Positions 14,676 to 45,621 of a stretch of 64,000 bases of DNA are shown piece by piece; positions within the stretch are counted from its first letter, which is position 1; every line of letters begins with the position of its first letter. The notes below the pieces were generated by a model that was given only the letters and a program-made list of their open reading frames with translations, was not told where the DNA came from and did no database searches. This stretch comes from a virus: positions 1 to 64,000 of the IMG/VR virus record IMGVR_UViG_3300021420_000021. One strand, 5' to 3'. A program made the translations under genes and the position numbers.

Positions 14676-15464
14676 ATGGCAAACTGTGAGGAGTGCGGAG
14701 CGGCGCATATATTGCGCAATACATCGGGCGCAACTTGGAAAAAAAATTGTTTATGTCCTGATCTTTCAATACATGTTCCGAGAACTCGGGCAACGATCAT
14801 AGTTCCATCAAAACATAACGACATTTTTGAAGCTTGCAAGAATAGTATTGATAAGTACGCGCCAAAAGAAAAAAAGATTTTGGTGAGAGACGGCAATGCT
14901 ATATCCTCGCCCGACCAATGGATTACGATTCAAGGTCCGGCTAGCCCGTTCGTATATAGCAGAAACATCAATCTGGGAATCAAACAGTCTACAGGTGATG
15001 TTCTGCTTACGAATGACGATGTTAGATTTACTCATCCATACACACTTGAGATAATGCAGAATGTGATGGAGAAGAATCCTGATGTGGGAATTTTATCGCC
15101 GTTGATTATTGGCGATGTCGGGGAATTTTTTCAGTCCCACGCGACTAAGACTTTACATTATACACAAGTGCGTCTGTGTTTTGTTTGTGTACTTATAAAA
15201 AAAGAAGTACTGGATAAAGTCGGCCTTCTTGATGAACGCTTTACAGGGTACGGATATGATGATTGCGATTACTCACGTCGCGTAGTTGAAGCAGGCTGGA
15301 AACTTGGTGTGACAGGCAAAGCAAAAGTAATTCATGGTCACGGCGATAATCGAAGATCAGCGTCTTACAACCGACAAGAGTATGGAACAATTAATGCATT
15401 AGATGAAATTGCCAAGCAGCAATATTTAGAAAAATGGGGAGACTTGTCACTTGAGTGCAAGTAA
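14676..15464 (+). CDS. Glycosyltransferase family 2
   Basis: TIIVPS, NINLG, LLTNDD, VGLLDERFTGYGYDDCDYS. Confidence 0.9.
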   Translation: MANCEECGAAHILRNTSGATWKKNCLCPDLSIHVPRTRATIIVPSKHNDIFEACKNSIDKYAPKEKKILVRDGNAISSPDQWITIQGPASPFVYSRNINLGIKQSTGDVLLTNDDVRFTHPYTLEIMQNVMEKNPDVGILSPLIIGDVGEFFQSHATKTLHYTQVRLCFVCVLIKKEVLDKVGLLDERFTGYGYDDCDYSRRVVEAGWKLGVTGKAKVIHGHGDNRRSASYNRQEYGTINALDEIAKQQYLEKWGDLSLECK

Positions 15465-26179: not shown

Positions 26180-26263
26180 AAGTTGATTAGCACTTTGCTA
26201 GTCCGTGATTAGGGCGGCACGAAACAAAACCGCCCACTTATTCTGGCCTGAATGCAGGAGATA

Positions 26264-28817: not shown

Positions 28818-29453
28818 TTGAGTTTTAGTCCTTCAGGGAATCAACTCTCTAACCTCCCGCAATCTACCGTAAAATTTTACGATAAAAAATTCCGGGAAAA
28901 TCTAAAGGCCCAGACGCCATTCGTGGCTTGCGCCGAACGTCTCAATTTGCCTACCAACTCTGGTAATCAATATGAGATGTTCATGTACGTCCCCTTAGCA
29001 GCCAACACCAATCAAACGACCGAAGGTACTGTCGGATCGTCTTTGAGTGCTAGCGTGCTAACAACCACGGCTACGATTGGTGAATATGCCGATTACGCTA
29101 ACTTCTCTTCGCTAAGTCTTGCAACTGCAATCGACAATACTGTCGAGAACGTCGCGAAGGAAATGTCTTATCGCCTTGGCGAAAGTCTGTCCGCTCTCGT
29201 TCGTGCAACTTGCGACGGCGCGAACAGCATCGATTCTAGCGTGCTGACTCAGTTGGCCGCGACTTCGACTTCGAGCTTTACCGCTCTGTCGTTGTCCCAG
29301 ATTCGAAATAGCGTCCAGTCACTTGCTGGCCGTTCTGTCCGTCCGTTCGATGAAGCGAGTAAGAGCTTCATCGGAGTCATCCATCCTTTCGCCCTTGGCG
29401 ATGTGTTGGCTGACAATAGCAACGATTCGCCTATCGATATCCTGAAGCACACT
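28818..29453 (+). CDS. Major capsid protein (N4-gp56-like), exon 1
   Basis: FYDKKFRENLKAQT, EG, ATIGEYADY, FIGVIHP; ends ...ILKHT at the 5' splice site. Confidence 0.88.
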
Positions 29454-29510
29454 TTAATTCTATTGGGGTGTGTATAAACTTAACTATATCGGGGAACATC
29501 AAGATTTCTC

Positions 29511-29539
29511 TTGACAATCCCGAGATAACTTCTTATAAT
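29511..29539 (+). promoter_or_regulatory. Consensus sigma70 promoter inside the intron core, upstream of the LAGLIDADG ORF
   Basis: TTGACA-17-TATAAT, exact consensus. Confidence 0.75.
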
Positions 29540-29549
29540 TAAGGAACAT

Positions 29550-30350
29550 ATGAAAGACCATTCTATAGCGTATATGGCGGGTCTGATTGATACAGATGGA
29601 ACTCTTGGTATTTATTACAAGGGCAATTCTGGATATCAGGCAAGTTTAGAATTTTACAACGATGATCAACAACTTATGAAATGGGTTGTTGAGCACTTTG
29701 GCGGGCAGTTTAAACCAAAGAAAGACCCAAGACGTGGGACTGTCGGATATCGATGGACTCCGCAAGGGCGTTTACACATGTGTAGAATTCTTGATACATT
29801 AATTCCTTTCCTTGTCTTAAAGAAATCTGAAGCATTGATCGTTCGTCGATTCTTGAGTATATCGGGAGAAGCCCCGGATTTACGAAAGTATCTGGCGAAC
29901 ACTTGCAGATTCATTAAAGGCAAAAGAAGCATCGTAGAGACTGATACGTTAAGAAGTCTCTTAACAAGAAAACCAAACTTAATTCAAGCATATGTTGCAG
30001 GGCTTATAGATGGCGACGGAAACATCGACACTTATGAGTCTAGCGTTGTGATTGGCTTTACTAATATGTGCTATTCGCTCATAGATGAGTTAGTTAAACT
30101 CTATGGCGGCGGATGGTATCAATGTAAGCCGACAACACGACGATGGCAACTTAGCGGAATGAAATTTCAAGAAGCATTTTTATTGAAGATCATTCCTTAT
30201 CTTGAACTAAAGAAGCAAAGAGCAAAGGATGCTCTTGAGTTTGTACGGAGTAAAATAAACATTCCGCGACAATTTGGAAGACCTTGTAAAGAACTTATGA
30301 TACAGTCCGATCTCATGGGCGACCATGAGTGCGATTCTAGTGGAAACTAG
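29550..30350 (+). CDS. Intron-encoded double-motif LAGLIDADG homing endonuclease
   Basis: YMAGLIDTDG and YVAGLIDGDG, each followed by a LxPxLxLK motif. Confidence 0.92.
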   Translation: MKDHSIAYMAGLIDTDGTLGIYYKGNSGYQASLEFYNDDQQLMKWVVEHFGGQFKPKKDPRRGTVGYRWTPQGRLHMCRILDTLIPFLVLKKSEALIVRRFLSISGEAPDLRKYLANTCRFIKGKRSIVETDTLRSLLTRKPNLIQAYVAGLIDGDGNIDTYESSVVIGFTNMCYSLIDELVKLYGGGWYQCKPTTRRWQLSGMKFQEAFLLKIIPYLELKKQRAKDALEFVRSKINIPRQFGRPCKELMIQSDLMGDHECDSSGN

Positions 30351-30368
30351 AAATCCTAAACAATAATA

Positions 30369-30764
30369 CCAGTTGGACAAGCTAAGATGGACGAACTCGT
30401 CTCGGTCGATTTGACCGAAGTTATCGAGTTGCCGTCTAGCGGAGTGCAATTCTTTCAGACTAACCTAGTCACTCAAAGTAACAATTACAAGTCTGTTGCT
30501 GGACTTGTAGGTCTTCGGACTTACATTTTTGGCAGAGACGGCGTATTTGCTATCAATCTAGGTGCAAAAGGCGACACTGGCTATGGTGATGGCGAGTGGC
30601 GGAATATAGAATGCAATATTATGCAGAACGTTGCACCGACCGTCGCGGACCCCGAAGGCCTCATACCGGGATGGACTTCTTACAGAGTTCATTTCACCAC
30701 GAGCCTCGGACCCGATACTACGATTCGGCAGAGACAAATTGATGCCGCTTCAGCCATAAGCTAA
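30369..30764 (+). CDS. Major capsid protein, exon 2 (spliced product ~343 aa)
   Basis: In frame with exon 1 (HT|PVGQAKMDE...); RTYIFG, DPEG...GWTSY motifs. Confidence 0.82.
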   Translation, partial: PVGQAKMDELVSVDLTEVIELPSSGVQFFQTNLVTQSNNYKSVAGLVGLRTYIFGRDGVFAINLGAKGDTGYGDGEWRNIECNIMQNVAPTVADPEGLIPGWTSYRVHFTTSLGPDTTIRQRQIDAASAIS

Positions 30765-30901
30765 ACAAAATAAAGGACTTAAATGTTCTTGACTTGTTTG
30801 ATGTTGTGTGGTAAAGTAGTACAGATGTAAATTTCGATAGGGGTAGGGTGCCGCAATCACCTTACCCTGATTCGATAGCTCTATTGCGGAGAGAAAATAA
30901 C

Positions 30902-31486
30902 ATGTTTGAAAAAGGCAATACTTTTAGTCAAGGCCGAAAAATTGGTTCGCACAGTGAACAAGAAATTCAAGCTTTAAAAGAACGCAATGCCGCCCGAAAG
31001 GGTCAACCTATCACATCTGAGAAAATGTTAGCCGCTTCGCGAGCGGGGTGCAAAGCAATGAACGCTGTTAGGCACTTAAAAGCAGGCCATATTTTAGAAA
31101 ATGTTGATTCTGTCGCCCTTACAGGTGATTGTCACATTTGTGGTCAAGTGCCGATTAAGGTAATGAAGCATAGAGCGAATGGCGCTTTACGCGATCAATA
31201 TTTATGTTGGGTTGGAACTCGTTGCAGAGAGACAGACGGAGCACCTGCCAAAGTCGCGTATAAGAATCAAGCATTAGAGATGTGGAACAATCAACATGGC
31301 AATTGTGCTTTGTGTTACAAATACATGGTTCGCGCAGGAAACACCAACGAAGGTGCAACGTTAGATCATTGTCACACGACCGGATTTATACGCGGCTTTA
31401 TTCATCAAGGCTGCAATAAAGGTTTGGGTCACTTTTTAGACGACCCTGAAGTTTTAAAAATGGCTGCTGAGTATTTACTTAGATAG
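30902..31486 (+). CDS. Endonuclease VII-family (HNH) homing endonuclease
   Basis: QHGNCALC...LDHCHTTGFIRGFIHQGCNKGLG; own promoter TTGACT-17-TAAAGT at 30789-30817. Confidence 0.85.
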   Translation: MFEKGNTFSQGRKIGSHSEQEIQALKERNAARKGQPITSEKMLAASRAGCKAMNAVRHLKAGHILENVDSVALTGDCHICGQVPIKVMKHRANGALRDQYLCWVGTRCRETDGAPAKVAYKNQALEMWNNQHGNCALCYKYMVRAGNTNEGATLDHCHTTGFIRGFIHQGCNKGLGHFLDDPEVLKMAAEYLLR

Positions 31487-31506: not shown

Positions 31507-32730
31507 ATGCCTATCCCCGCACAAACAACGGGTCTTGGAACCGCCGTCGCAGTCACGTTGGCGGGAACTGGAGTCATACAGGAAAAGACACCTGTTGCTG
31601 GAACTCAAGGAATTTCGCACTACAATGTAACTCTGTCTTTGTCCGGGACCGGATTTCCGAGCACTGTCGCGGTCAGTGCTTCGACCATTGACGTTGCTGG
31701 AAACGTCGTTAGTAATGGCGGCGCTTCAGGATCGACGCAATTGGGCGCAGCCGCCGCAGCTTATGCTATTCTTGCCGCTGCTGGAATTACTAATACTGGC
31801 GCGACTGTCATTTCTGGCGGAAATATCGGTTCGTATCCGACTGCAACTGAAACCGGATTTACCGGGGCAAATTTTGTTCCTCCGGCGACGACTGATAACG
31901 CTGATGCACAAGCAGGACTCGCCGCCGCTTTGGTAACATATAACGCGCTATCGGCTTTGACTTTTACGTCTTTGTCCGCGTCTTCGGCCAATTTAAGCAC
32001 TCTTGGTAACGGAAGTACAGCTTCGACTTATACCGCAGGTAATTATTCTGCTGGCACAAGTATGGACATTCCGACGAGTATTACTCTTGACGCGCAAGGT
32101 AATCCCGGCGCGGTATTTATATTTAAAGCCGGATCGACACTGACTCTCGAATCTAACGCGTCTGTTCTTCTTGTCAACGGCGCTCAAGCCGCGAACGTTT
32201 ATTGGCTGGTCGGTAGTTCATTTACTTCGATCTTTGGAACTGTGTCCGTCATGAACGGAAATATTCTTGCCAATACAAGTATTACTCTTGGCGGTGGCGT
32301 CCTGAATGGCCGAGCGCTCGCCGGAATTGTGACTTCATCTGGCGCAGTTACAATTGCGACTGCCGAAGCAATTACAGTTCCCGGATTTTCGCAAAGCACA
32401 GCTTCAGGAATGAACGCAGTTAGTTATAATGCATGGCCGCGTTTGGTTGGCGGCGTTACACAGACTCGCGATGGTGTGACTCGTAATGCGCAAGATGTCA
32501 CTGTTTCTTATCCGGCTCCGACTTCAGGTCCGGGCGGCGTTGCTGATGTGTCAGATGTCAATAATCCATTCCTTGTTACCGCGTATCGTGTCGGTCAAGC
32601 GTGGGTCGAATTCTTTTCTCCAACTTTCGGAAATTCCGAACCATTGGCGACAGATATTGAGTCGAATTTGACCGAAGGTTTTCCGACCGATAAGATACAG
32701 GCCCAACTTTTAGTAAACGTCGTGAAGTAG
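31507..32730 (+). CDS. Putative capsid decoration protein with inserted DUF3494 ice-binding-like domain
   Basis: YAILAAAGITNTG...ITLDAQGNPGAVFIFKAGSTL...NGAQAANVYWLVGSS...GNILANTSITL...LNGRALA; flanks paralogous to the next two genes. Confidence 0.88.
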   Translation: MPIPAQTTGLGTAVAVTLAGTGVIQEKTPVAGTQGISHYNVTLSLSGTGFPSTVAVSASTIDVAGNVVSNGGASGSTQLGAAAAAYAILAAAGITNTGATVISGGNIGSYPTATETGFTGANFVPPATTDNADAQAGLAAALVTYNALSALTFTSLSASSANLSTLGNGSTASTYTAGNYSAGTSMDIPTSITLDAQGNPGAVFIFKAGSTLTLESNASVLLVNGAQAANVYWLVGSSFTSIFGTVSVMNGNILANTSITLGGGVLNGRALAGIVTSSGAVTIATAEAITVPGFSQSTASGMNAVSYNAWPRLVGGVTQTRDGVTRNAQDVTVSYPAPTSGPGGVADVSDVNNPFLVTAYRVGQAWVEFFSPTFGNSEPLATDIESNLTEGFPTDKIQAQLLVNVVK

Positions 32731-32749
32731 TTTAAAGAAAAGAGAAATC

Positions 32750-33307
32750 ATGTCTAATCCAGTTCCTCCCCATAATCCTACTGACGGATTGTCGTCTGCG
32801 TGTTTTGTGCAGCTATCAGGCACAGGCGTTATTGTCGATCCGAAGCAGACAAGACCGCCGTCTGCTAATTACCCAAATGCAGGACATTATGAAGTTACTT
32901 TGAGTGTTTCTGGCGCAAATGGTTTAGCGTCTTCTGTCGTTATAACACCATCACTTGTTGATGTGTCTAATACAGCGTATGCTTCGACTGCTGCGTCTTG
33001 GGTTTATCGGTCGTATAACGATCCTCAAGTAACCGAAGCAAGTCTTCCAACAGGACCGGGAAATCCGACTAATCTTGCGCCGAAGCCGACGCAGACTGCG
33101 AAACTTGCGTCTGTTAGCGCATCTGGAGCATCAACAGTAACCGTCACTGCGCTGTCTCCGGGCAAAGCAATTGTATCCGCAATTTACCCCACCTTCGATA
33201 ACGCAGAAGGAAATGTTACAGTTGGCAATCTTGGCGGACCCTTGGCCGGAACTACAGTGCCGAAAGATTATATTTTTTCATTTCTCGATGTAAAAATATT
33301 TCCGTAA
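32750..33307 (+). CDS. Putative decoration protein (Ig-like), paralog 2
   Basis: Shares LSGTG, HYxVTLSxSG, DVxN, VTAxxxGxA and PTFxN with 31507..32730. Confidence 0.7.
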   Translation: MSNPVPPHNPTDGLSSACFVQLSGTGVIVDPKQTRPPSANYPNAGHYEVTLSVSGANGLASSVVITPSLVDVSNTAYASTAASWVYRSYNDPQVTEASLPTGPGNPTNLAPKPTQTAKLASVSASGASTVTVTALSPGKAIVSAIYPTFDNAEGNVTVGNLGGPLAGTTVPKDYIFSFLDVKIFP

Positions 33308-33325
33308 ATTTAGCAGAAAGGTATT

Positions 33326-33913
33326 ATGCCGCCTCTTTTTCCAAGTTCGCAGAACAGCTTAAATTATACAACGGGCGTAGGAATTCCGGCCCGAGTTGCC
33401 CTTAGTGGGACCGCAGCCGGAGGTAATAGTGTGACACAGCAACAGTCCGCCACGATTGACGGAACTTCGTATGTTGTTCTTCAAATGCGTGGTCCTGAAT
33501 ACTATCTTCTGATGACTTTGCCGTCTGATACGTGTCAATTGAGTGCCGGGATTGTAGATGTCGCTGGCAATGCGAGCACGGTTGATGCGAGTAATACGTT
33601 TACTTATACATCGTGGAACGCGAGTTCGGTCGTATTATCGATGTCGAATACTGGAAGTGCATCAGGATCGGAGTTCGTATCTTTTTCTGCCGCAAATATG
33701 GGTACAGGCTGGATGCCTTCGAATCTGGCATGGGAAAGTAAAGTTGTAACTATCTCTTCGTCTGGTTTGATTACTGCGAACGCAAAAGGCCATGCGGTAG
33801 TGGAGTGTCGCTACCCCTTAAGTAAAGCATCGAACAATCCCGTTACGAATGGTTTAAATACGACAGACAACCCACAATTTATTGCGGCATTGCTTGTAAT
33901 TCGAGTCAATTAA
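33326..33913 (+). CDS. Putative decoration protein (Ig-like, Big_2-type motif), paralog 3
   Basis: VVTISSSGLITANAKGHAVV; same flanking motifs. Confidence 0.7.
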   Translation: MPPLFPSSQNSLNYTTGVGIPARVALSGTAAGGNSVTQQQSATIDGTSYVVLQMRGPEYYLLMTLPSDTCQLSAGIVDVAGNASTVDASNTFTYTSWNASSVVLSMSNTGSASGSEFVSFSAANMGTGWMPSNLAWESKVVTISSSGLITANAKGHAVVECRYPLSKASNNPVTNGLNTTDNPQFIAALLVIRVN

Positions 33914-33939
33914 TTATACATGATATAATAGGAGGAACT

Positions 33940-34257
33940 ATGTCTGATGATCGGAACTATATTGCTAGTTTAGAAGAGGCGCTCGAAGATATCACTGAAG
34001 ATAATCTTAGATTGCGCAACACAAACAGAATTCTCCGGGCCGTAAATTCAGGACTTCGGTCGAAACTTGAAATCGCGCATAAGAACGACGAAGAGTTTGT
34101 TTCGGCGTGTCAATGGGATGAAGAAATCGACGCTCGCGCCGCACAAATTGATTCAGAATCTGACTCGACAGGATATGTCGAGTATGTCGAAGAGAAATCT
34201 GACTATCCGCAAGGATTTCAAGAATATTGGGGAATTGGCAACACAAGTTATACGTAA
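33940..34257 (+). CDS. Acidic coiled-coil protein
   Basis: AGGAGG SD. Confidence 0.7.
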   Translation: MSDDRNYIASLEEALEDITEDNLRLRNTNRILRAVNSGLRSKLEIAHKNDEEFVSACQWDEEIDARAAQIDSESDSTGYVEYVEEKSDYPQGFQEYWGIGNTSYT

Positions 34258-34260
34258 TTA

Positions 34261-34432
34261 AGTGAACAAGGTTAAGAAAAAGTGGATTACTATTTCTTAG
34301 TCTAATCGGACGGACGGTCTAGAACGACCGCGAGATGTTAGTCGTTGTTGCGCCTGATCCGCGCAAAGAGACGCTGATTTCACTAGTGCAAGGGCTTCTC
34401 TGGGAGCCTGAACCGGAGGAGCACAAGCACTA
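34261..34432 (+). ncRNA. Candidate structured ncRNA
   Basis: Six nested stems in an intergenic gap (see findings). Confidence 0.45.
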
Positions 34433-34453
34433 CAATTTAAACGGAGGAGGAAA

Positions 34454-34933
34454 ATGAAGTTACTAAACCGTATTAGAACTTGGTTGCTTTATAAGTTATG
34501 GAAGCCAAAGGATAAATCACCCGAAGAACTAGAGTTTGCGAGAGAAAAAGGTAAGATTTTAACTCAGCAAAAACAATGGGATGATCAAAGACATGTCGGA
34601 TGTTCACACCTTAAAGGCGGGAATGTAGGGAACGTGTTTGGCGGCGATTTCAGTAAGTTTGCCCAAGGTTGGTATAACGGACAAAATGGGCAATACGCAG
34701 TAATCAAGCATCAGATGGCGAATGGCGATATTTATGTAAACTGTTTACGATGCGGTAAGAAGTGGAAAAAGCCAATAAGATCGTCATTTAAGAAAGAACA
34801 AGATTACTTAATAGCTCTTGCAGAGTACGAAACTGCTGTGAAGTTTCCTACGAATAATAGCATGTCTACATCGATTCAATTACGATTTTCTGACAATGGC
34901 GAAGCGCATCGTAAAGCGATAGAGAATAGTTAA
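34454..34933 (+). CDS. Putative Zn-binding protein, paralog of 36202..36843
   Basis: CSHLKGGNV...QYAVIKHQ...CLRCGK. Confidence 0.75.
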   Translation: MKLLNRIRTWLLYKLWKPKDKSPEELEFAREKGKILTQQKQWDDQRHVGCSHLKGGNVGNVFGGDFSKFAQGWYNGQNGQYAVIKHQMANGDIYVNCLRCGKKWKKPIRSSFKKEQDYLIALAEYETAVKFPTNNSMSTSIQLRFSDNGEAHRKAIENS

Positions 34934-35006
34934 ATTTCGCAGTGTCATGAACTGTGAACGGGCGATAGCCTTCTACTATCGCCCACTCTTTAGAAGGGAG
35001 AGAAGT

Positions 35007-35546
35007 ATGCGAATTGAAACAAACATAAGAAGCATTAAAGATTTATCCAACATGAAATTTGGTAGATTGATACCGATTATGCCTATTGCAAAAGATAGGT
35101 TTAATAAGACGATATGGCTAATGTTGTGCGATTGCGGCAAGACAAAAGCTATAAACAGCGCAAATTTGAGTTCAAAACATACTCAGAGTTGCGGGTGTTT
35201 ACGCGATGAGTGTCAGTCTGCGCTTAAACATGGTGCTAGTTGTCGCGGTAAGATAACGCCTGAGTATCAAGCTTTTAGAGCGGCGAAAGAACGCTGTACT
35301 AACCCAAAGAATAAAGCATATAAATATTATGGCGGAAGAGGAATCGAGTTTCGTTTTGTTAGTTTTGAAGAGTTTTTTGCGGAGATAGGTTTACGACCCG
35401 ACGCGATGTCGCTAGATAGGATTGAGGTAAACGGGCATTATGAAAAAGGGAATGTTCGTTGGGCGACTCAAAGTCAGCAAGTACAAAATCGTAGATCACA
35501 GCCTGAAATTCTTTTACAGTATGCGGCAGCATTAGGAGGAGTGTGA
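35007..35546 (+). CDS. HNH-like homing endonuclease
   Basis: KFGRL...CDCG...SCGC...YYGGRGI...SLDRIEVNGHYEKGNVRWAT. Confidence 0.85.
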   Translation: MRIETNIRSIKDLSNMKFGRLIPIMPIAKDRFNKTIWLMLCDCGKTKAINSANLSSKHTQSCGCLRDECQSALKHGASCRGKITPEYQAFRAAKERCTNPKNKAYKYYGGRGIEFRFVSFEEFFAEIGLRPDAMSLDRIEVNGHYEKGNVRWATQSQQVQNRRSQPEILLQYAAALGGV

Positions 35547-36217
35547 GTCAACCAACACAAGAGGAGATTCAACGTCTTCAGGGAACACGGCTCAATACGG
35601 AGAAAGCACCGTGGCAGACGTATTCTGAGGAGTTGGATGTGAAGATGTCGCCAGAGTTAGCGGCAGAAGTTGCCGACTACAGCACGCGATATCACGACTC
35701 AGAATCTAGTAATCAGAATAAAGAAGAATTGGCCCGATGGCAAGAGCAGAATTATGACGCGATGGGCGAATATCGATGGGCAAGTCCAGAAGAATATGCC
35801 GATATTGAAGCTCGAATCGGACGAATTATGCATCACAGCGAATTCGTGACGCGATTGAAGAAGATCGGCGTTCGATGTGCGTTACGCGATCATCCGCAAA
35901 CAGATAAATTGACTTTGCTTGTACAACGCGGAAATGATGTTTTAAAGCCATATGAAGTTGGATGTTGGATAAAGAATGGATTCGCGCCAGAATTTTCAGT
36001 CATGGGATTTGATGAGCATGGAGTTCCACTCGCAGAGCGTTACAGGGGTTGGCGCACCGCGATTCTTCAGCTTATTCTTAAACAAGTATTGACGGAAGAA
36101 CAAGCGCATAAAGAATTTGGAAGTACAGATCGATGTTGTGCCGGGAGATATAATTCAATACTTCACGGCATCAGGAATACAGTAGATAAAGAGGAGGAGC
36201 AATGTCAGACGAAGTAA
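35543..36217 (+). CDS. Hypothetical protein
   Basis: ORF track; GGAGG SD. Confidence 0.75.
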   Translation: MSQPTQEEIQRLQGTRLNTEKAPWQTYSEELDVKMSPELAAEVADYSTRYHDSESSNQNKEELARWQEQNYDAMGEYRWASPEEYADIEARIGRIMHHSEFVTRLKKIGVRCALRDHPQTDKLTLLVQRGNDVLKPYEVGCWIKNGFAPEFSVMGFDEHGVPLAERYRGWRTAILQLILKQVLTEEQAHKEFGSTDRCCAGRYNSILHGIRNTVDKEEEQCQTK

Positions 36218-36843
36218 AGAAACATTCTGCGACAGAAGAGTTGGCGCAGTTAGACTTACAGATTAAGCGCGAAGAACTTGAACAGTTGAAATTGTCAAGA
36301 CAAGAGCGCGAATATTCGATCAAAGATTTGAAAGGAAGACTAGCCGAGCGCGACGTAAAAGAACTTCAGAAGAAAGAAGATCGTGAAGCGCAAGGCCGGA
36401 CTTTCGCGCAGCAGAGAGGAACTGACGAAGCTCGTTGGAAGATTTGTACGCATAAAAAGGGCGGAAACGTCAGTCAGCGCGATATGCGTGTTCTGAGTAC
36501 AGGCGGAAACGCCGCGCAATACGCAGTTATGAAGCACCAGATGATTAATGGTGATATTTGGGTCCGTTGTTTGCGTTGCGGTAAAACTTGGTCGCCGCCG
36601 CTGAAATCGAAGTTCTATTTTGATAATCGCGGTAAGCAAGTTCCGGCGCATTCGGGCGAATTTAACAAAGACCGTTTTGACGCAGCAGTTCTTGATTATC
36701 AACGCGCAGTTGCATTCGAAACGAATAATACGATGTCCGGATCGGTCCAAGTTCGGTTCTCCCGATGGGACGAAAAGAGTCAGCAACTCGTTGATGCATC
36801 GAAAGACTACGCCGAATCGATTGCCGATACGACATTGCGCTAG
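36202..36843 (+). CDS. Coiled-coil plus putative Zn-binding protein
   Basis: CTHKKGGNV...QYAVMKHQ...CLRCGK. Confidence 0.78.
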   Translation: MSDEVKKHSATEELAQLDLQIKREELEQLKLSRQEREYSIKDLKGRLAERDVKELQKKEDREAQGRTFAQQRGTDEARWKICTHKKGGNVSQRDMRVLSTGGNAAQYAVMKHQMINGDIWVRCLRCGKTWSPPLKSKFYFDNRGKQVPAHSGEFNKDRFDAAVLDYQRAVAFETNNTMSGSVQVRFSRWDEKSQQLVDASKDYAESIADTTLR

Positions 36844-36894
36844 AATTAACGTCGCCGCTGAGTGCGGTTTGCGCCCCTAAAACGGGAACACTCT

Positions 36895-36933
36895 TCGGGC
36901 GGGTTTGATTTAAAGATCGCCCGCCCGATTTTT
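36895..36933 (+). terminator. Intrinsic terminator
   Basis: TCGGGCGGG/CCCGCCCGA stem plus TTTTT. Confidence 0.7.
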
Positions 36934-36953
36934 ATATTGTGTAGAAAGTAGAA

Positions 36954-38039
36954 ATGGCAACTTCAAACAGCACTCTGACCTTGCAAGAATTAGTGGACGA
37001 CTGTAAATCAATGGCCGATCTTGCGCCCGCGTTAGCGACAGGCGGATATTCTGATCAACCCGCGCTTTCAATCGCCAATGACGTGATGCAGAATATGGTC
37101 GCGGGCGGGCCTGAAGGTCAGCCGTTTAACTGGAAATGGAATCGCATGGTCGAGACTCCATTTTTCATTAATTCGTGGCAGCAAGATTATTTCATCCCGA
37201 ACCTTGTTACACTTGGATGGCTTGAAAGTTGCACCGCATCTTGTTTCTCTACGACACAATTTCCCAAGCCGATTTTACCGATTGAAGTAAAACGAGACTT
37301 GTTGATCGTTAGTTTACAGACTTCGCAAACTGCGAAGATTTGCTGGATGCAAAATGACACTATGTTGGCAGGAACTTGGGGGCAAACAGAACAAGCTTCA
37401 GCAACAGGATTGGCGAATCCGGGTCCGGGCGTTGTTATCACGAATCCGGCAAATCAGCCGTCAATGCCGATCAATCCTACGACACAGGTGAAAGACGCTT
37501 TTGGCAATTTGTGGGTTGTGACGACTTACGGGACTTGCGGCAGTTCGAATCCATTTGCGACGAATCTTAATCCAGCATTTCCGACATTGCAGAATCAAAG
37601 CATTGTATCGACTACAGTAAACGATGGAACTGTTGTTTGGACCGCAGTTAATCCGAAAGGTCAAGGATTTCGAATCAATCCACTTCCCGGCCAAACCGGG
37701 CCAGTTTGGTTAATTCAACCAGTCGGCCAGAACCGAGTTCAAAGACTGACGAGTTACGGACAATTTCTTGATCCGATTCCAGATGATTTTTATACATTTT
37801 TCAAACAAGGATTTTTCGCCCAATGTTATCGCCGTTCGCCCGATCCAAAAGTCCGGGCGAAGTTCGAAATGGAATATCAGCTATGGCAAAAAGCATTAGT
37901 CAATGCCGTCAGACAAGGCGCACGAGAAATCGATGATTGGGGCTTTTATCCAACATCGAATGTCATGGATGGAACTGGATACGGAGGTTGGGTTGGTGCA
38001 ACGCCCGCACTACCGTATGGCCCCTGGCAAGGTTATTAG
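36954..38039 (+). CDS. Head-tail adaptor / tail tubular protein A-like, paralog 1
   Basis: Position; PALSIANDVMQ...PFNWKWN. Confidence 0.65.
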   Translation: MATSNSTLTLQELVDDCKSMADLAPALATGGYSDQPALSIANDVMQNMVAGGPEGQPFNWKWNRMVETPFFINSWQQDYFIPNLVTLGWLESCTASCFSTTQFPKPILPIEVKRDLLIVSLQTSQTAKICWMQNDTMLAGTWGQTEQASATGLANPGPGVVITNPANQPSMPINPTTQVKDAFGNLWVVTTYGTCGSSNPFATNLNPAFPTLQNQSIVSTTVNDGTVVWTAVNPKGQGFRINPLPGQTGPVWLIQPVGQNRVQRLTSYGQFLDPIPDDFYTFFKQGFFAQCYRRSPDPKVRAKFEMEYQLWQKALVNAVRQGAREIDDWGFYPTSNVMDGTGYGGWVGATPALPYGPWQGY

Positions 38040-38296
38040 AATCAATAATTTACAGACAATTTCACTATATTGTGTACAAAGATGTTGATCATGAGCATGA
38101 GAAACCCGGCACGCATCGTGGCATTCTTTGCGCATGGTGTAACACAGCACTCGGCAGATTAGAGCCGAATATGCAGAAAGTCTTAGAATATCTGGCCGAG
38201 TATGGAAAATACTACGAGCCTCCGCTAAAGGATTTAAATGCCCGCTTTGAGCACAATTACGCTAGAAATGACGATGGATTGGGCGAAACGCCTTAG
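38040..38296 (+). pseudogene. Endonuclease VII remnant
   Basis: VDHEH...HRGILCAWCNTALG, lacking the N-terminal CxxC and a credible start. Confidence 0.65.
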
Positions 38297-39206
38297 TTTT
38301 AACCGCAACTTTGGAATCGGTAATTCTCTTGAACCCGCGCTTACGTCTGCAAACATGGTCGCTCAGACGATTCTTTCGCCTCCATTTGACTTCTGGTGGA
38401 ATTCTCAAGAGATAAGCTTTACGTGTTCGACAGCGCCTCCGGTCGCGAACATTACAAACGTCGCGATTACAAGTAAAATTGTAACTCTGTTGATGATAAA
38501 TACGTTTGTTCAGAATGATCAAGTTTTAATCGCGTCTTTAGTGACTGCGGCGTTTCTTAATGGCGCAGTATTGACTGTTTTGACGGCATCGCCAACACAG
38601 ATTACGGCTTATTTTAATCATGCCGACTATGTTTCTGCCGCCGATACAGGGACTGCAACAAAAAGCACGACTCAAGATTATACAGTCAATATCCCTAATT
38701 TTTCTCACATCGAACATGCGTCTGTATACGATATATTTACGAACAGTCAGACGACCGGAACTGTCGGCAAGAAGTGGTGGGAACTAGAAGTAAAGAATAA
38801 TCTGTCTTTAGATTCTACTCTCGGTCGGCCTCAGTTTATCAATCCGCAATTTGAAGATGTTAATAGTAACGTTACATTTCGAATGATGCCTGCGCCGAGT
38901 CAGAATTACCCTGTCGCACTTCACGTTCAGTTAGCGCCGCCGTTGTTTACGAGTTTGAATCAAACATGGTCGCCGCTTCCTGACTTTATGCAACACATTT
39001 ATTCATGGGGTTTTTTAAGTCTGATGTGGGCCTTTGCGGATGATCCGCGTGTTGGTTTCGCGAATCAAAAATTTACATCTAGTCTGCTCGCCCGCGCAGA
39101 TGGGCTATCTCAAGAAGAACGCGACACGTTTCTCAACAATTGGAATATGTTGACTGGAACACAGCAACAACAACGAGCACAAGGAACGCAGATGCGAGGT
39201 ATGTAG
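38238..39206 (+). CDS. Head-tail adaptor / tail tubular protein A-like, paralog 2
   Basis: PALTSANMVAQ...PFDFWWN...PAP...LPDF. Confidence 0.65.
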   Translation: MPALSTITLEMTMDWAKRLSFNRNFGIGNSLEPALTSANMVAQTILSPPFDFWWNSQEISFTCSTAPPVANITNVAITSKIVTLLMINTFVQNDQVLIASLVTAAFLNGAVLTVLTASPTQITAYFNHADYVSAADTGTATKSTTQDYTVNIPNFSHIEHASVYDIFTNSQTTGTVGKKWWELEVKNNLSLDSTLGRPQFINPQFEDVNSNVTFRMMPAPSQNYPVALHVQLAPPLFTSLNQTWSPLPDFMQHIYSWGFLSLMWAFADDPRVGFANQKFTSSLLARADGLSQEERDTFLNNWNMLTGTQQQQRAQGTQMRGM

Positions 39207-39520
39207 TGGCTCAACGACAGATCATAAATGGCGGCTTCCAGCTTCCTAACGGGTCGCCACTAGCACTCGGGTATTTAAAAATGCGGTTAAATGTTGATGC
39301 TACGACCGGAGTAGATCAGATTGTCGCGGGCCGAGTTGTAACTGTTCCACTTGATAGTAATGGGAATATATCTGGCGCAGTTTTAGTTTGGCCGAATGAT
39401 CAGCTTATTCCAATTAATACGGTTTATGTAACTCAAGCATTTAGCGCATCAGGTCAACTATGTTGGCATGAAGAATTAAGCATTCCTTCGGGCGCAGGAT
39501 CATATAGTTTGTCAGGATAA
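39206..39520 (+). CDS. Stand-alone tail-fibre anchor-like domain
   Basis: GTG start with GAGGT SD; paralogous to the N-terminus of 39529..40713. Confidence 0.65.
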   Translation: MAQRQIINGGFQLPNGSPLALGYLKMRLNVDATTGVDQIVAGRVVTVPLDSNGNISGAVLVWPNDQLIPINTVYVTQAFSASGQLCWHEELSIPSGAGSYSLSG

Positions 39521-39528
39521 GGAAATAC

Positions 39529-40713
39529 ATGTCAGCACCAACTAAGGTCCAGCTTATCGGCGGACATTTTCAAGACCTTTCCGGAAATGTTTTAGCAAAT
39601 GGTTATCTTCGGATGTTTCTTAGTTCTGATGAATTGGTAACAGGGGTCGGCTTTATTTGCAGCGGTGTTTTTGTACAAATACAATTAGATTCTGCGGGAA
39701 GTGTTGCAAGTTCAACAAGCACGCCGCCTGCTGCAAATCAGTTTGTTTGGGGCAATGATCAAATGGCCCCGACTAATAGTTATTATCGTGTTTTTGGCTA
39801 TGCCGCAAGCGGGCAACTTGCTTTCGGCCCCGATAATCAGCAAGTTATCGGCAATGGCGGAACGTTCGATGTCGGTACTTGGATACCAAATTCTGTCATA
39901 AGTTGGCAACCGCCGATTCAGCCGTTAACACTTGAAGTAAACAGTGTATTAGCTGGATCACAAACGCTATTGAATCTTAACGCAGGATCAGGAATAACTT
40001 TGACCGATAATGGATCGGGTCAAGTTACTGTCGCATCTAGTCTCGCAGCGCTATTATTAGAAACGAACGGAACGCCGAATACATCGCAGACATTATTGAA
40101 TTTAGCCGCAGGTACAGGTATTACGATTACAAATCCTAGCGGCGGTGAAGTTTTGATTTCGTCTACTACATCTGGATCACCTTCCGGATCGAATGTAATA
40201 TTTATCGATGAAGCACAAAAAAATGCAGGTTCCGGATTTAATGGCGCAGCTACTGATTGTATTATTGTTCGAGTTCCTGCTAGTTCTGTAGCCGCAATAG
40301 GTAGTAAAGTCATAGTTACGATCAATTTTTCTGCGCTCGGATCAAGTTCAATAAAGATGACTCCTGTATTACGACGGACTCTTCCGGGCGGAACAGCTTT
40401 TACCGATACGACTGCAATTACATTTGGTGGCAGCGCTACGCCTACTTTTACAGGAAGTACTTTAACGTATACATCAGACGATGTTTCTTGTACTATCGAT
40501 AGTGCCCATGATAATTATTTCATATTTAATGAAACAACTGTGACAGGTACGCCCGCCTACTATACTTTTGTAGAAAATTATATTACTAAATGTAGCGGAG
40601 AAGTAACTAACGGCGTGAATTATTCTACCGTGTCATCGATACCGAGTTTACCGACTTTGCTCAGTTTGTTGTCTACACAAAGTACTCTTGTTTCAAGTAT
40701 CGTAATTGGATAA
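39529..40713 (+). CDS. Tail fibre / receptor-binding protein
   Basis: Anchor N-terminus; duplicated SQTLLNLxAGxGITxT unit; beta-rich C-terminus. Confidence 0.65.
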   Translation: MSAPTKVQLIGGHFQDLSGNVLANGYLRMFLSSDELVTGVGFICSGVFVQIQLDSAGSVASSTSTPPAANQFVWGNDQMAPTNSYYRVFGYAASGQLAFGPDNQQVIGNGGTFDVGTWIPNSVISWQPPIQPLTLEVNSVLAGSQTLLNLNAGSGITLTDNGSGQVTVASSLAALLLETNGTPNTSQTLLNLAAGTGITITNPSGGEVLISSTTSGSPSGSNVIFIDEAQKNAGSGFNGAATDCIIVRVPASSVAAIGSKVIVTINFSALGSSSIKMTPVLRRTLPGGTAFTDTTAITFGGSATPTFTGSTLTYTSDDVSCTIDSAHDNYFIFNETTVTGTPAYYTFVENYITKCSGEVTNGVNYSTVSSIPSLPTLLSLLSTQSTLVSSIVIG

Positions 40714-40722
40714 GGAAAGTAA

Positions 40723-43700
40723 ATGTCGAACGCGTTGCAGGCCGCTGGCGCTCAGCCGGACAAACAAACTAAATTCACAAATTTATATACAGGCCGTTTC
40801 TTTTCAGGAATCTGGACAAATCGTTCTCCATTACGTGATGCTGCTTCGACTCGAATAGAAGAAAAGTTTTACGGGCCACGTGGCGATGCAATGATCGCGG
40901 GATCGAACGTCGAAATTACGAATAGGCTGACTTTAGGTCGAAGACCCGGAAATCCGGTTTACGACAATGTTAATACTTTTACTAATGTTCTGAGTTTTGA
41001 CGATTTTCGTATCAGCAAGGGCTTATCTGACATTTTCGGAACGGTGACCGAACAAGTCGATACAATGATCGACACAAGCGCTGCTCTATTTGCCGAGAAT
41101 AGTGCTTTTGTTCTTCAAGGCGGCGTCAATCCAACGACAGTATTTACGAAGTCTCCCGGCGCGGGACAAAGTTATGGAATTCAAGTCGGAAACGAATGGT
41201 ATTTTGGCAACGGCGCGGATAATAAAAAGTGGCTTCAGTCTTTATTTGTTCGATCAAGTGCAAGCAATAATGCGACTTTAAATCTTAATTCGTATCCGTT
41301 CATGGATACATTTTTGATTAGTAATCCGACGACGAATCCGCAGATTCAGCAATTAATTGGTGCCGCTGTTCAATCGGGCGCGTCAGGTTCAGTCAATAAT
41401 ATTAACGTCACGAACGTCGTTTTGACGAATGAAGTGTTGACACTTACGACTTCCGCCGCTCCGTTTACGACACAGCCTATTGGCACGCAGTTTATGCTAT
41501 GGGGATTTACAAATCCTGCTACGACATTTTTGAACGGTTCGACTATTACTTTGACTGTCGCTTGGTCGGGAACGACTATTACTGCGACTTGGACCGGAAC
41601 GCACGCAAATATGTCGCAGGCGGATACAGCGGTCATTCAAATTGAAAAAGGTGGTACGAACTCTGTTACAAATACACTTGTACTCGGTCCTACGGTTCCG
41701 ACATGGGGAACAGTTGCGCCAAGTGCCGCTAACGATTTCATGGGCAGTGTAACGATTGACGGACAGGCGATTTGGGTCAATCGTGGAATAACTGTCGAAA
41801 ATTGGGGATTAGCAGCACCGACTGAAGATTTGACTTCAGGTCCGGGCGGAATTTCGTTAACTGGTGCGGCTTCAGGATTTTCTCCAAATACGTTTTTTGC
41901 TCCAGCAAGTGTATTCATAGACCCTAATGGTAATTTATGGGAAGTGACAACCGGAGGCAAATCTGGCGCAACTGAACCTGCTTGGCCCGCTTCGCCTACG
42001 TTTAGTGTAAAGCATGACATTTTTGCAGTTTCAGTCGCAGCTAACGTCGCGACTATATATTGTACGACTTTGCCGAGTCCGGGTCAAAGTGTGCAACTTT
42101 TCGGGTTACAACAAGCGAACGGAAATGGCGGCGCGCCGAATCTCAACGGCGTGACTTTGACCGTCGCGACAACCGGAGCAAATTTCTTTACTGCGCCTTT
42201 TACGTTCTCAGGGACTTATCCGGCGACTGGTGATGGCGCGGATCAAGGATATGCTATATTTTATGGTACGACTCAAGCAGACGGAAGTGTAGTCTGGACA
42301 AGTCTGCAAAGCGCCGCATCGATGGTTTGGGCTGCGCATACGCATTATCATCAAGATGATTTTTTAGTCGCGCCTACAGGGTCGAGTACATCGTTATTTC
42401 GGTTAAGCAAGAATACGCAACCGTTTATTCAGTCTGATGGAGCGCTATTAAGTACTCTTTATCCAACGTATAATTCAAGCCCGATAACCGGATCGTTTAA
42501 CGCGATTGCAAATCCGATAACTATTAATTCTTGGGCGGATAATTCTAATCCCGCCCGAGGGTTTAACGGCGCGTTTAGTCAATCGTATTTATCGGTTCCG
42601 ACATCCGGATCAGCCGCTGTTTCTACGCCTGTTCCGGGGTCTTTATACGCCGTAACAAATTCGACAGCAGGCGGCGGACCCGAACAAAGCGGGCCGAACG
42701 TCTACTTCTTTGCCGTCAACGGCGCGGGCGAAATAGGTGCGTCAACAGATAGCGGACAAGCTCAAAATTGGGAAGCTTCGTTTATTTGTAAAATTTACAT
42801 TCCTGCTCCCGGAACTTATACGTTTTCTCTTTTACACGATGATGGTGCTTTTTTTTCATTCGATAATATTTCTACTTCTGCGTTTTTGACTATTGGTTCG
42901 CAGACGAATGTTCCGCCAACGTTTTCCGGATCAGGCGGAAAAACTGCTATTCAAGGTTATACCGGAGTTGTCGGAAATAATAACTCCGGCGTTACTACAG
43001 ATTCAGCGACTTGGAGATTTCCAACAGCAGGCGATTACACATTAGAAATTAATTGGAAAGCTTGGCAAAACGCAGAAGAGATGATTTTTACTTGCCAGAG
43101 TTTTAATCTTGCAAGCAGTCCCGACGAATCCGGAACAAATCAACCTGCTTGGCCCGCTTTTACGACTACTGGAGCGACCGCGAGTACGACGACTGGAATT
43201 ACGTTTGGTACAGGCGACGTTATCAAAGAAGCAGGCGGTCAGTATACGTGGAGCAATTTAGGTCCGACGAGCGCATATAATGTCTGGTTTGCAAATACGA
43301 CTTATACCGTGTCAGGAACGCCGATTGTTGATACGAATGGAAATGAACAGCTTCCAATTCAACCCGGCGTAACTGGATCGACTGCGCCTGTATTCAACGG
43401 GACATTGAACGGGATTACGACGATATCCGGATCAACGTTACAGTTTATCAACGCCGGAGGTGTGCCAATTCAGCCGAACACTCCGGGAAAGATTACGGCT
43501 ACGAGCGCCCAAGGTTGGATTTATGGGATCGCACTTGTCAATACGTTAGATAATACTGTTTCGAATATTGGGCCGATAGGCCCGCCGAACAGCGCAGGCG
43601 GTGTAGGAACAGGGCCACTTATTAGCGGACAAGTTACGTTCTCTCCGGGTGCGGGATTGCCAACTGATCTGACTCAAATCGATCCACAAGCTGATTACGT

Positions 43701-45621
43701 AGCTATTTTTAGAACGACTGACGGTTTTTCGACTTTGTTACTTATACCGAGTAACGGAAATACCGATTATACTGTTCCGTTGACTCAGTATTTACAAAGT
43801 GGTTATGTTGATACGACGCCCGATACAGGCTTAGATACGCTCATTCAAGCTGCCGCAGCCGGAGAAAACACCCCTCCGCTACCGGGCGCGGTTAATCTGA
43901 CGTATCATTTAAACCGTATTTGGTACTCAATCGGCAATACTGTATATTATACAACCGGGCCGTTAGCGCCAGTAGGAAACGGTATTAATGGAACTTCGCC
44001 ATTGAACTTTGACGGTGTGACTTCTTTAATCACTCGATTAGTTCCATCTTCGATAGGCATGTTAGTGTTCACCGTTTCGGATATTTATATAATCCCGAAT
44101 CAGGGCAGAACGATTCTTCCGAGTCTTCCGTATGTTCCGGGCGTAGGATTGTCGAGCTATAATGCTCTTGATATATCAGGGCCGTTAGTCGGCTTCTTTT
44201 CGACTGATCATCAGTTTATTAACTTCAATCCTAGCGCGGGCGTCAACATCGTTTCGATGCCAATTGGCGACCAGTTCCGTAAGAACACCGGACAACCGGG
44301 AACATCTTGGAACCCGAAAAATGTCTACGTCGCTTGGTATGTCAACGGCGAAGACATGGGATGGTTTGTTGCGGACGGCGTTAATGGGTGGTATAGGCTG
44401 ATTAACAATCCCGCACCCGATTTCGGGCAAAGCTGGAGTCCGTTTGCCACAATTGTAAACGGCGTAAAAGCTATTAAATCTGTTGAAACCGCTCCGGGAG
44501 TACATAATTTACTTCTAGGCCCGTCTTCTTCAGCACCTATTAATCCTTCTCAGTTAGGATCAGCCGGGAATTACGCACTACTCGCGTATTCTGGAATTAC
44601 AAATACAGGTTCGTCTGTCATCTTCGGGAATGTTGGTACTGTGACTGCAACGGTTACTCCGGGTGGATGGACTCTTGTTCCGCCATCAGTCATAGATAAC
44701 GCAGACGCAGCAACAGCCGAAGTCGCCGCTCTTGCCGCGTATAATTTTTACGCAGCATTGACGCCAACGAAATCCGGGCTGTCTAATCTTTCGACAGGCG
44801 GAAACGGAAGTACAGCTTCGACCTATACAGCCGGAGTTTACGCCGGAGCGTCGAGTTTGTCGATGCCGACAGGAATTACTCTTGATGGCCAAGGTAATAC
44901 TAATTCTATATTCGTATTCCAAGCCGGATCGACTGTAAATCTTGCGTCCGGACAATCGGTCAATCTTATTAACGGCGCACAAGCAAGCAACGTATTCTGG
45001 GTCGTTGGTACTTCGCTAACAACTGTTGCAACAAGTACAATGGTCGGGACAATTCTTGCTCAAATATCTGTCACATTAGGCGGCGGAATTTTGAACGGGC
45101 GTGCTCTTGCTGGAATCGGCGGATCAAGCGGGGCGGTAACTATTTCTGCCGCAACTGCGATTACTATTTCAGCCGGATTGCCGACAGGTTCCGGATTTAT
45201 TCGATTTAGAAATCTTGATGCTTCTTCCGATGGCGGAACAGGATTGACGAACGGATTGACTTATCCTGCATACGGAGTATTCGGATCATACGTACTCGCG
45301 CAACCCGGTCAAGTCGCGCAAGTTGCATTCGTTACGACTGACTCAGTAAATACGGGAAGTCCGTTAATTTTAGGGCTTTTGATAGACGAAGCTTTGCCTT
45401 ATTTTACCGGAAGTTTTGAGATGTTGAAGAACTGGACGACCGATCCTCCGGGATTACCCGCCAGTAAATCAATTCTCGGACAACGCTTTTATTTGTCTGA
45501 GCTTCCCAATTCCGCAGCGGCGTTACGCCATATGCAAATCATGTGCCAATGGCCTAGCGAAAGTGCGCTTAATGAATTGCAGAGCTTTACGGTATTTGGC
45601 GATTATGTTCAGGAGCAGTAG
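40723..45621 (+). CDS. Large tail (nozzle/tubular B-like) protein with PA14-like and DUF3494 ice-binding-like insertions
   Basis: 1632 aa; YTFSLLHDDG PA14-like motif (~42770-43100); DUF3494 at ~44548-45170. Confidence 0.8.
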   Translation: MSNALQAAGAQPDKQTKFTNLYTGRFFSGIWTNRSPLRDAASTRIEEKFYGPRGDAMIAGSNVEITNRLTLGRRPGNPVYDNVNTFTNVLSFDDFRISKGLSDIFGTVTEQVDTMIDTSAALFAENSAFVLQGGVNPTTVFTKSPGAGQSYGIQVGNEWYFGNGADNKKWLQSLFVRSSASNNATLNLNSYPFMDTFLISNPTTNPQIQQLIGAAVQSGASGSVNNINVTNVVLTNEVLTLTTSAAPFTTQPIGTQFMLWGFTNPATTFLNGSTITLTVAWSGTTITATWTGTHANMSQADTAVIQIEKGGTNSVTNTLVLGPTVPTWGTVAPSAANDFMGSVTIDGQAIWVNRGITVENWGLAAPTEDLTSGPGGISLTGAASGFSPNTFFAPASVFIDPNGNLWEVTTGGKSGATEPAWPASPTFSVKHDIFAVSVAANVATIYCTTLPSPGQSVQLFGLQQANGNGGAPNLNGVTLTVATTGANFFTAPFTFSGTYPATGDGADQGYAIFYGTTQADGSVVWTSLQSAASMVWAAHTHYHQDDFLVAPTGSSTSLFRLSKNTQPFIQSDGALLSTLYPTYNSSPITGSFNAIANPITINSWADNSNPARGFNGAFSQSYLSVPTSGSAAVSTPVPGSLYAVTNSTAGGGPEQSGPNVYFFAVNGAGEIGASTDSGQAQNWEASFICKIYIPAPGTYTFSLLHDDGAFFSFDNISTSAFLTIGSQTNVPPTFSGSGGKTAIQGYTGVVGNNNSGVTTDSATWRFPTAGDYTLEINWKAWQNAEEMIFTCQSFNLASSPDESGTNQPAWPAFTTTGATASTTTGITFGTGDVIKEAGGQYTWSNLGPTSAYNVWFANTTYTVSGTPIVDTNGNEQLPIQPGVTGSTAPVFNGTLNGITTISGSTLQFINAGGVPIQPNTPGKITATSAQGWIYGIALVNTLDNTVSNIGPIGPPNSAGGVGTGPLISGQVTFSPGAGLPTDLTQIDPQADYVAIFRTTDGFSTLLLIPSNGNTDYTVPLTQYLQSGYVDTTPDTGLDTLIQAAAAGENTPPLPGAVNLTYHLNRIWYSIGNTVYYTTGPLAPVGNGINGTSPLNFDGVTSLITRLVPSSIGMLVFTVSDIYIIPNQGRTILPSLPYVPGVGLSSYNALDISGPLVGFFSTDHQFINFNPSAGVNIVSMPIGDQFRKNTGQPGTSWNPKNVYVAWYVNGEDMGWFVADGVNGWYRLINNPAPDFGQSWSPFATIVNGVKAIKSVETAPGVHNLLLGPSSSAPINPSQLGSAGNYALLAYSGITNTGSSVIFGNVGTVTATVTPGGWTLVPPSVIDNADAATAEVAALAAYNFYAALTPTKSGLSNLSTGGNGSTASTYTAGVYAGASSLSMPTGITLDGQGNTNSIFVFQAGSTVNLASGQSVNLINGAQASNVFWVVGTSLTTVATSTMVGTILAQISVTLGGGILNGRALAGIGGSSGAVTISAATAITISAGLPTGSGFIRFRNLDASSDGGTGLTNGLTYPAYGVFGSYVLAQPGQVAQVAFVTTDSVNTGSPLILGLLIDEALPYFTGSFEMLKNWTTDPPGLPASKSILGQRFYLSELPNSAAALRHMQIMCQWPSESALNELQSFTVFGDYVQEQ

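Follow-up and report, generated by a model that had tools for sequence, protein, structure and literature searches.

Why should a bacteriophage carry domains of the ice-binding protein family (Pfam PF11999, Ice_binding/DUF3494) inside two proteins of its structural gene block? The question is raised by the first 64,000 nucleotides (nt) of the virus record IMGVR_UViG_3300021420_000021 (termed the window throughout), where one such domain is encoded within a small protein beside the major capsid gene, here called dec1, and another within a large tail-block protein of 1632 amino acids (aa). Both domains are members of a phage-specific DUF3494 subfamily, which has been grafted into at least six virion-protein backbones and is present or absent among close relatives. 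In the reading that we favour, the domains probably serve as adhesion modules on the virus particle. The two carriers and their domains are arranged as follows:

31507..32730, + strand: dec1, 407 aa, composed of an N-terminal beta domain, the DUF3494 domain, a low-confidence linker of ~50 aa and a C-terminal beta domain; AAGGAA is found 9 nt before the ATG
31735..32379, + strand: DUF3494 domain 1 (residues 77-291; Pfam envelope 31768-32355), recognised by PF11999, Foldseek and phmmer
40723..45621, + strand: 1632-aa tail-block protein, a homologue of gp19 of the phage Tunturi_3
44524..45186, + strand: 221-aa insert with linkers, containing DUF3494 domain 2 (residues 1268-1488; Pfam envelope 44581-45153), in a loop ~145 aa before the C-terminal end

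The curated cut-off of PF11999 is 28.7 bits. The family matches residues 88-283 of the open reading frame 31507-32730 (E 3.6e-35, 122 bits) and residues 1287-1477 of the open reading frame 40723-45621 (E 1.4e-31, 110 bits), and a six-frame search of the whole 94-kb genome yields exactly two matches (126 and 116 bits). The original prediction, made from the letters of the window, had described two complete DUF3494 domains carrying the family motifs; the PF11999 search is positive for both, and every motif listed there is in its place.

Structure prediction, proposed as a check along with the original prediction, assigns the DUF3494 fold to domain 1 with confidence and, from a weak model, places domain 2 in the same family. 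A model of dec1 based on an alignment of 28 sequences has a predicted local distance difference test score (pLDDT) of 72 overall and of 80-95 across the DUF3494 domain, where a helix (residues 134-149) lies beside stacked strands, the right-handed beta-helix plus long alpha-helix fold of the IBP-1 proteins. All 31 significant Foldseek matches of this model in the PDB are DUF3494 ice-binding proteins, and the best match of domain 1 is AnpIBP 7BWX, with a template modelling (TM) score of 0.88 (by target) and a root-mean-square deviation of 2.3 Å. Domain 2 was modelled at a pLDDT of 58-74, and its top 31 Foldseek matches are likewise all DUF3494 ice-binding proteins. By sequence, IBPv 5UYT is the closest protein of solved structure to either domain (phmmer E 8e-29 for domain 1 and 1.6e-27 for domain 2). 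The IBP-1 proteins AnpIBP (7BWX/7BWY), EfcIBP (6EIO), IBPv (5UYT) and the Ca. Cryosericum IBPs (9LHN/9LHR) belong to the same Pfam family and share the ~200-aa fold, with TM scores of up to 0.88 and 30-35% identity. In contrast to these secreted or stand-alone proteins, which come from organisms of cold habitats and have measured ice activity, the domains of the window are internal inserts, and their phage-only subfamily is known from sequence.

The window constitutes the start of a 94,266-bp record (genome G000), which is rated 99% complete. Pfam and PHROG searches recognise several homing endonuclease genes in addition to those of the large terminase, the portal and the major capsid protein, and from ~14 kb onwards every gene of the window is on the + strand. 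Within the phage collection, Tunturiibacter phage Tunturi_3 (PP885686) comes closest, its large terminase being 50% identical and its structural block syntenic with that of the window. Tunturi_3 is a 97.6-kb podovirus of an Acidobacteriota host from the Finnish Arctic tundra (PP885686). Its relatives in metagenomes derive in several cases from Arctic tundra or permafrost peat and in others from soils in Indiana, Colorado and Washington. For comparison we used six related IMG/VR contigs (G001-G006) in addition to Tunturi_3.

The head-side carrier is the first of three related genes, the parts of which that matter here are:

31507..31734, + strand: N-terminal ~75-aa domain of dec1, common to both paralogs and, weakly, to Tunturi_3 gp7; candidate particle anchor
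32422..32727, + strand: C-terminal domain of dec1, corresponding by homology to the C-terminal half of dec2 and dec3, with a Big_2-like VTA..G.A.V motif
32750..33307, + strand: dec2, insert-free paralog, 185 aa, tandem immunoglobulin (Ig)-like by weak leads
33326..33913, + strand: dec3, second insert-free paralog, 195 aa, with a weaker match to the N-terminal flank of dec1

Residues 1-74 of dec1 match dec2 (BLASTP E 2e-10), dec3 more weakly (E 0.002) and gp7 at E 0.04. At the other end, residues ~306-406 match the dec2/dec3 profile with 97.4% probability and E 1.4e-11 (hhalign with a dec1 profile of 28 homologues). Because both flanks match the dec2/dec3 family, dec1 is a two-domain protein of the dec2 kind, the halves of which are separated by the solenoid and linker. 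The original prediction had domain 1 interrupt a protein whose flanks match the two insert-free paralogs that follow it, and this arrangement is borne out by BLASTP for the N-terminal flank and by profile-profile comparison for the C-terminal one. The gaps within dec1-dec3 measure 18-20 nt, ribosome-binding sites are present, and both carrier genes are part of a tightly packed late operon. A tblastn search of 50,697 phage records with dec1 gave no match at 1e-5.

On the tail side, the domain 2 insert is bounded by LLLGP and GSGFIRF. Tunturi_3 gp19 (1136 aa) aligns to residues 1-1281 and 1487-1631 of the 1632-aa protein and runs continuously across the insert, with 38-50% identity on each side. 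In an alignment of ten phages, the four carriers share the 221-aa block, and the six non-carriers fuse ..LL.GP straight to GSG.I..R. The flanks are thus contiguous in gp19 and in six insert-free homologues, which agrees with the claim that domain 2 had been inserted after LLLGP near the end of the tail protein. Both insertions are clean, and their junctions are rich in Gly, Ser and Pro. The 1632-aa protein has 569 homologues, which are viral and none of which is named, and the ESM Atlas returned unnamed viral clusters only. A search by sequence for similarity to a podovirus tail nozzle of the T7 gp12 type was negative (hhalign of a 30-sequence profile against T7 gp12, 1% probability; no PHROG or PDB match). 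The single match of the model of residues 940-1632 outside DUF3494, a phage tailspike (Foldseek E 9e-4, TM 0.10), is weak and was not used.

The domains come and go among closely related phages. G001, G002 and G003 hold both inserts, and their tail-block proteins are 97%, 89% and 50% identical to that of G000, respectively. G005 has dec1 with its insert, and the contig stops within the tail gene. PF11999 is absent from G004, from G006 and from the whole Tunturi_3 genome, the gp19 of which is insert-free. The capsid protein of G006 is 97-100% identical to that of the window and dec2 as well as dec3 are present, yet the genome has neither a dec1 gene nor a tail insert. Homologous phages lacking the insert, for which the original prediction had suggested a search, therefore exist in G004, G006, Tunturi_3 and the six tail homologues. 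Among the 120 nearest of the 569 tail-backbone homologues, 13 contain PF11999. In a FastTree phylogeny of the backbone, these 13 carriers fall into at least five clades and imply seven parsimony changes, and the insert always occupies the same loop, 130-158 residues from the C-terminal end.

An exhaustive search with domain 1 retrieved 120 representatives at E <= 1e-30, the closest of which are 60-78% identical and reside at very varied positions in proteins of 300-1760 aa. Once the domain is masked, the flanks of these proteins and of word-search hits match dec1-type, dec2-type and Tunturi_3 gp7-type backbones and the big tail protein, and furthermore a 685-aa protein of the phage L017, relatives of the 765-aa open reading frame at 62687, and N-termini like those of Tunturi_3 gp15/gp18. 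L017 (IMGVR_UViG_3300021088_000005, 100.8 kb) is a distant relative, in which a domain 77% identical to domain 1 is embedded in the 685-aa protein (10001-12058). This protein fills the slot of its homologue in the window, the gene at 38238-39206, directly upstream of a big tail protein that is insert-free.

Among phages, the members of the DUF3494 subfamily share 55-78% identity. In cellular genomes (one representative per prokaryote species), identity across the whole domain does not exceed ~47%, and the best matches are mostly from soil Actinomycetota, Myxococcota, Verrucomicrobiota and Planctomycetota, the nearest including Streptomyces, Frankia, Micromonospora and Verrucomicrobia. The DUF3494 family occurs in ~10% of 201 sampled Acidobacteriota genomes.

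Between G000 and G002, the ratio of nonsynonymous to synonymous substitution rates (dN/dS) is 0.086 in domain 1, 0.099 in domain 2 and 0.05-0.16 in the flanks (dS ~0.74-0.86). The domains are under purifying selection (dN/dS ~0.07-0.10) and hence are functional, not decaying passengers. Exchange between domain copies also occurs. The tail proteins of G001 and G000 are 98% identical save for a patch of ~150 nt in domain 2, where nucleotide identity drops to 51-64%. On the G001 contig (L004), the patch is located at about nt 13890-14040 of a tail gene spanning 10001-14908, the remainder of which is >90% identical. The patch is a recent recombination tract from a third domain copy.

Did the two domains of the window arise from one another? 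The original prediction had argued for a duplication within the phage lineage and had pointed to a run of 20 identical nt, which is exact on recheck:

32008..32027, + strand: 20-nt identical run, copy 1, within the GNGSTASTYTAG codons
44803..44822, + strand: 20-nt identical run, copy 2, an exact match to 32008-32027

This run would fit a recent copying of one domain from one gene into the other within this genome, as would the patch in domain 2 of G001, which is somewhat closer to domain 1 than the G000 version is. Against such an event, the two domains are only 57% identical in protein (over 216 residues, E 1e-58) and 58% in DNA, and domain 1 is closer, at 75-78% identity, to domains carried by different proteins in other phages. 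In a quick IQ-TREE phylogeny the two domains of the window fall into different clades, and the dec1-type and tail-type domains are each polyphyletic. The GNGSTASTYTAG-type segment, previously regarded as unusual, turns out to be subfamily-wide, since GNG..TY..G is found in 78 of 108 phage domains. Moreover, G001 retains only 17 nt of the identical run, and in G002 the identical run is 14 nt long and located in another part of the domain. A duplication within the lineage is therefore not supported, and a recent one inside this genome appears quite improbable.

Where on the particle might the carriers reside? Two further features define the surroundings of dec1:

28818..30764, + strand: major capsid gene in two exons (28818-29477 and 30387-30764), matching phrog_1357; it marks the head block preceding dec1
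30848..31486, + strand: EndoVII-type free-standing homing endonuclease (PF02945, E 5e-16), directly upstream of dec1

The genes dec1-dec3 thus follow capsid exon 2 with a single endonuclease gene in between. As expected for a decoration protein, dec1 lies beside the major capsid gene and is dispensable, lacking as it is in G006. Gene order, the Ig-like leads and the automated annotation of Tunturi_3 suggest that dec1 is a capsid decoration protein and the 1632-aa protein a tail protein. The label “head decoration” that gp19 bears in the Tunturi_3 paper stems only from an automated Phold/Foldseek assignment.

We consider it likely that the self-contained DUF3494 cassettes form an outward-facing, multivalent adhesion module displayed on the virion, with exposure, copy number and binding predicted from the genes. 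Cassette 1 separates the two beta domains of a small, putatively Ig-like protein whose gene is next to the capsid gene, and cassette 2 occupies a single fixed loop near the C-terminal end of the 1632-aa tail-block protein. In soil podophages that resemble Tunturi_3, the subfamily recombines among many backbones of virion proteins and is gained or lost between close relatives, and purifying selection keeps the cassettes intact. The modules may then hold the particle on an extended, repetitive surface. A pectate-lyase-type tailspike is encoded downstream, and the main task of receptor binding therefore probably does not fall to the solenoid domains; adhesion would act alongside this separate tailspike and not in its place. 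In support of a role in adhesion, both carriers are kept in G001-G003 down to 50% backbone identity.

Several observations weigh against this interpretation. The Tunturi_3 paper contains no virion proteomics. The Ig-like leads for the dec proteins are all weak or sub-threshold (PKD, E 0.004; Foldseek cadherin/BIG2, E 0.4-1.4; Atlas Ig/Big_2, 0.89). Outside its insert, the 1632-aa protein has no Pfam, PHROG or PDB-sequence match in profile searches, and neither backbone has a hit to a named family. The model of residues 940-1632, built on a 10-sequence alignment, has a mean pLDDT of 34, and exposure of the loop is a prediction. Blade-like repeats, which would suit the beta-propeller core of a nozzle, are seen by eye only. 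Finally, the trees are quick ones, IQ-TREE with the Shimodaira-Hasegawa-like approximate likelihood ratio test (SH-aLRT) only, and FastTree without review of support.

An adhesion module of this kind would resemble known systems in part. The Shewanella frigidimarina protein SfIBP_1 (6BG8) and the MpIBP-type ice adhesin combine a DUF3494 domain with Ig-like (Big_2) domains that hold it off the surface, and dec1 follows the same logic. SfIBP_1 is, however, a bacterial cell-surface protein, whereas dec1 is presumed to sit on a virus particle, has a different domain order and is without repeats. T4 Hoc and T5 pb10, as well as “bacteriophage adherence to mucus”, provide the precedent of a small, dispensable and variable Ig-like protein on the capsid side that is thought to be weakly multivalent. 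In size, dispensability and variability dec1 is similar, and it may be so in its putatively Ig-like parts, but it has no sequence or family relationship to Hoc or pb10, its adhesive unit would be a beta-solenoid and not an Ig domain, and it is known from genes alone.

Which surface would the modules bind? A polysaccharide, cell-envelope or mineral surface is a plausible ligand, which we advance tentatively, and the composition and kinship of the domains make ice a possible but rather unlikely one. The ice-binding virion of the original prediction, in which flat domain faces bind ice and many copies would stick the phage to ice or locally inhibit recrystallisation, thus seems doubtful to us, although every functionally characterised relative binds ice, including IBPv, the best relative by sequence, and AnpIBP, the one closest in fold. 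Both domains consist to ~55% of Thr, Ser, Ala and Gly with ~4% or less of charged residues, as would suit an ice binder, and the sole cultured relative and several metagenomic ones come from Arctic tundra or permafrost peat. The supposed benefit, of which we are no more convinced, would lie in freeze-thaw survival or in staying at ice-water films near hosts. However, the Arctic isolate Tunturi_3 has no copy of the domain, and its relatives also occur in the temperate soils of Indiana, Colorado and Washington. PF11999 ranks with the most abundant Pfam families across a worldwide set of 1,512 soil metagenomes (PMC11237643), and the nearest cellular homologues are found in mesophilic soil bacteria. 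Raymond and colleagues also record DUF3494 proteins from hot springs and from the tropics, and they suggest that repeating substrates other than ice may be bound (PMC7783341). Among the samples of the carriers, 3300050821 appears in the literature just as one of the largest soil metagenomes, and the carriers' IMG samples are absent from the Tunturi supplement. By the same token, we are sceptical of an ice adhesin or antifreeze coat on head and tail, made from a mobile cassette that is traded among head, tail and fibre proteins, possibly via homing endonucleases. We commit ourselves to the broader concept of a virion-displayed adhesion cassette.

Two further explanations dispense with binding by the particle. 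The rigid beta-solenoid might have a structural role as a stabiliser or spacer, or it might be a mobile insert that is tolerated and that homing endonucleases have spread. The presence of the domains indeed varies among near-identical phages, EndoVII-type genes adjoin dec1 in three phages, and this phage is rich in homing endonucleases. Yet an inert passenger is improbable in view of the strong purifying selection over the whole domain, the retention of both carriers down to 50% backbone identity and the repeated grafting of the fold into many different proteins, which is not easily understood unless it brings a benefit. Alternatively, the phage could supply an auxiliary metabolic gene, i.e., a soluble ice-binding protein made in infection that cryoprotects the host. 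PF11999 genes on viral contigs from Arctic surface-water viromes, which belong to the same Pfam family, have been read as host-protecting soluble proteins (PMC11515562). Here, in contrast, the domains are fused in frame into larger structural-block proteins, the flanking parts have insert-free homologues among the virion-block proteins, and cassettes are exchanged. No secretion signal is visible either: features of a signal peptide are absent by eye from the dec1 start (MPIPAQTTGLG), which is without a basic or charged N-region, and domain 2 begins 1267 residues into its protein. An auxiliary gene is accordingly highly improbable, and the virion-displayed adhesion cassette is the reading that we retain.

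Three diverged phages have an EndoVII-type gene directly next to dec1 (window 30848-31486, L006 1404-1931 and L008 3333-3908), which lies upstream of it in G000 and downstream in G003 and G005. Such a neighbour is a possible driver of the mobility and spread of the dec1 cassette; since these genes are frequent here, the association may also be due to chance. The capsid gene itself is interrupted by an intron-borne LAGLIDADG endonuclease gene (29550-30350), located between its exons. The intact capsid protein of L017 aligns to both capsid pieces, 28818-29477 and 30387-30764, and endonuclease genes occupy the same site of the capsid gene in G006, L021 and L022.

Other genes of the region deserve mention. 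Between the portal and the scaffold/capsid genes, a GT4-family glycosyltransferase is encoded at 26252-27244 on the + strand (PF00534/PF13692, E ~3e-7). As pure speculation, this enzyme could glycosylate virion proteins, the Thr/Ser-rich solenoid domains included. ARAGORN calls a permuted transfer-messenger RNA gene at 7325-7709 on the - strand, with the tag peptide ANTNVKAMSASAGA. A 1382-aa protein (51069-55217, + strand) matches DUF7178 (E 2.5e-27) and phrog_3842 and could be an injection protein or another internal component of the virion. The window ends within the gene for a 765-aa protein of no known family, which extends from position 62687 to 64984 of G000 (L103 688-2985) and homologues of which in other phages bear a DUF3494 domain. 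Approximately 2.7 kb further downstream, G000 encodes the 533-aa pectate-lyase-like tailspike at 67703-69304 (L103 5704-7305), which matches PF12708 (E 5.6e-8) and phrog_2234. The genes for the 765-aa protein and the tailspike appear to make up a second block devoted to host recognition.

Accessory binding domains on phage particles, either Ig-like or carbohydrate-binding, are a known theme. In the literature searched we found no paper with a DUF3494 domain inside phage structural proteins, and viral PF11999 genes are read there only as auxiliary genes. In the viral structure library BFVD, the fold is limited to three Hyperionvirus (giant-virus) proteins. In the phages described here, the ice-binding fold acts as a recombining cassette of the phages' own, which is under selection and is placed in several virion proteins at once. 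A cultured member of the group and its host exist, Tunturi_3 on Tunturiibacter, and therefore the question can be addressed at the bench. Should the ligand be ice, this would be the first virus known with its own ice adhesin or antifreeze coat, which might allow persistence through freeze-thaw or gathering at ice-water films in seasonally frozen soils; the finding would then be relevant to the survival of soil viruses during freezing and to the turnover of carbon when soils thaw. Should the ligand be other than ice, the cassettes would provide the clearest hint so far that DUF3494, a family very abundant in soils, serves as a general surface adhesin.

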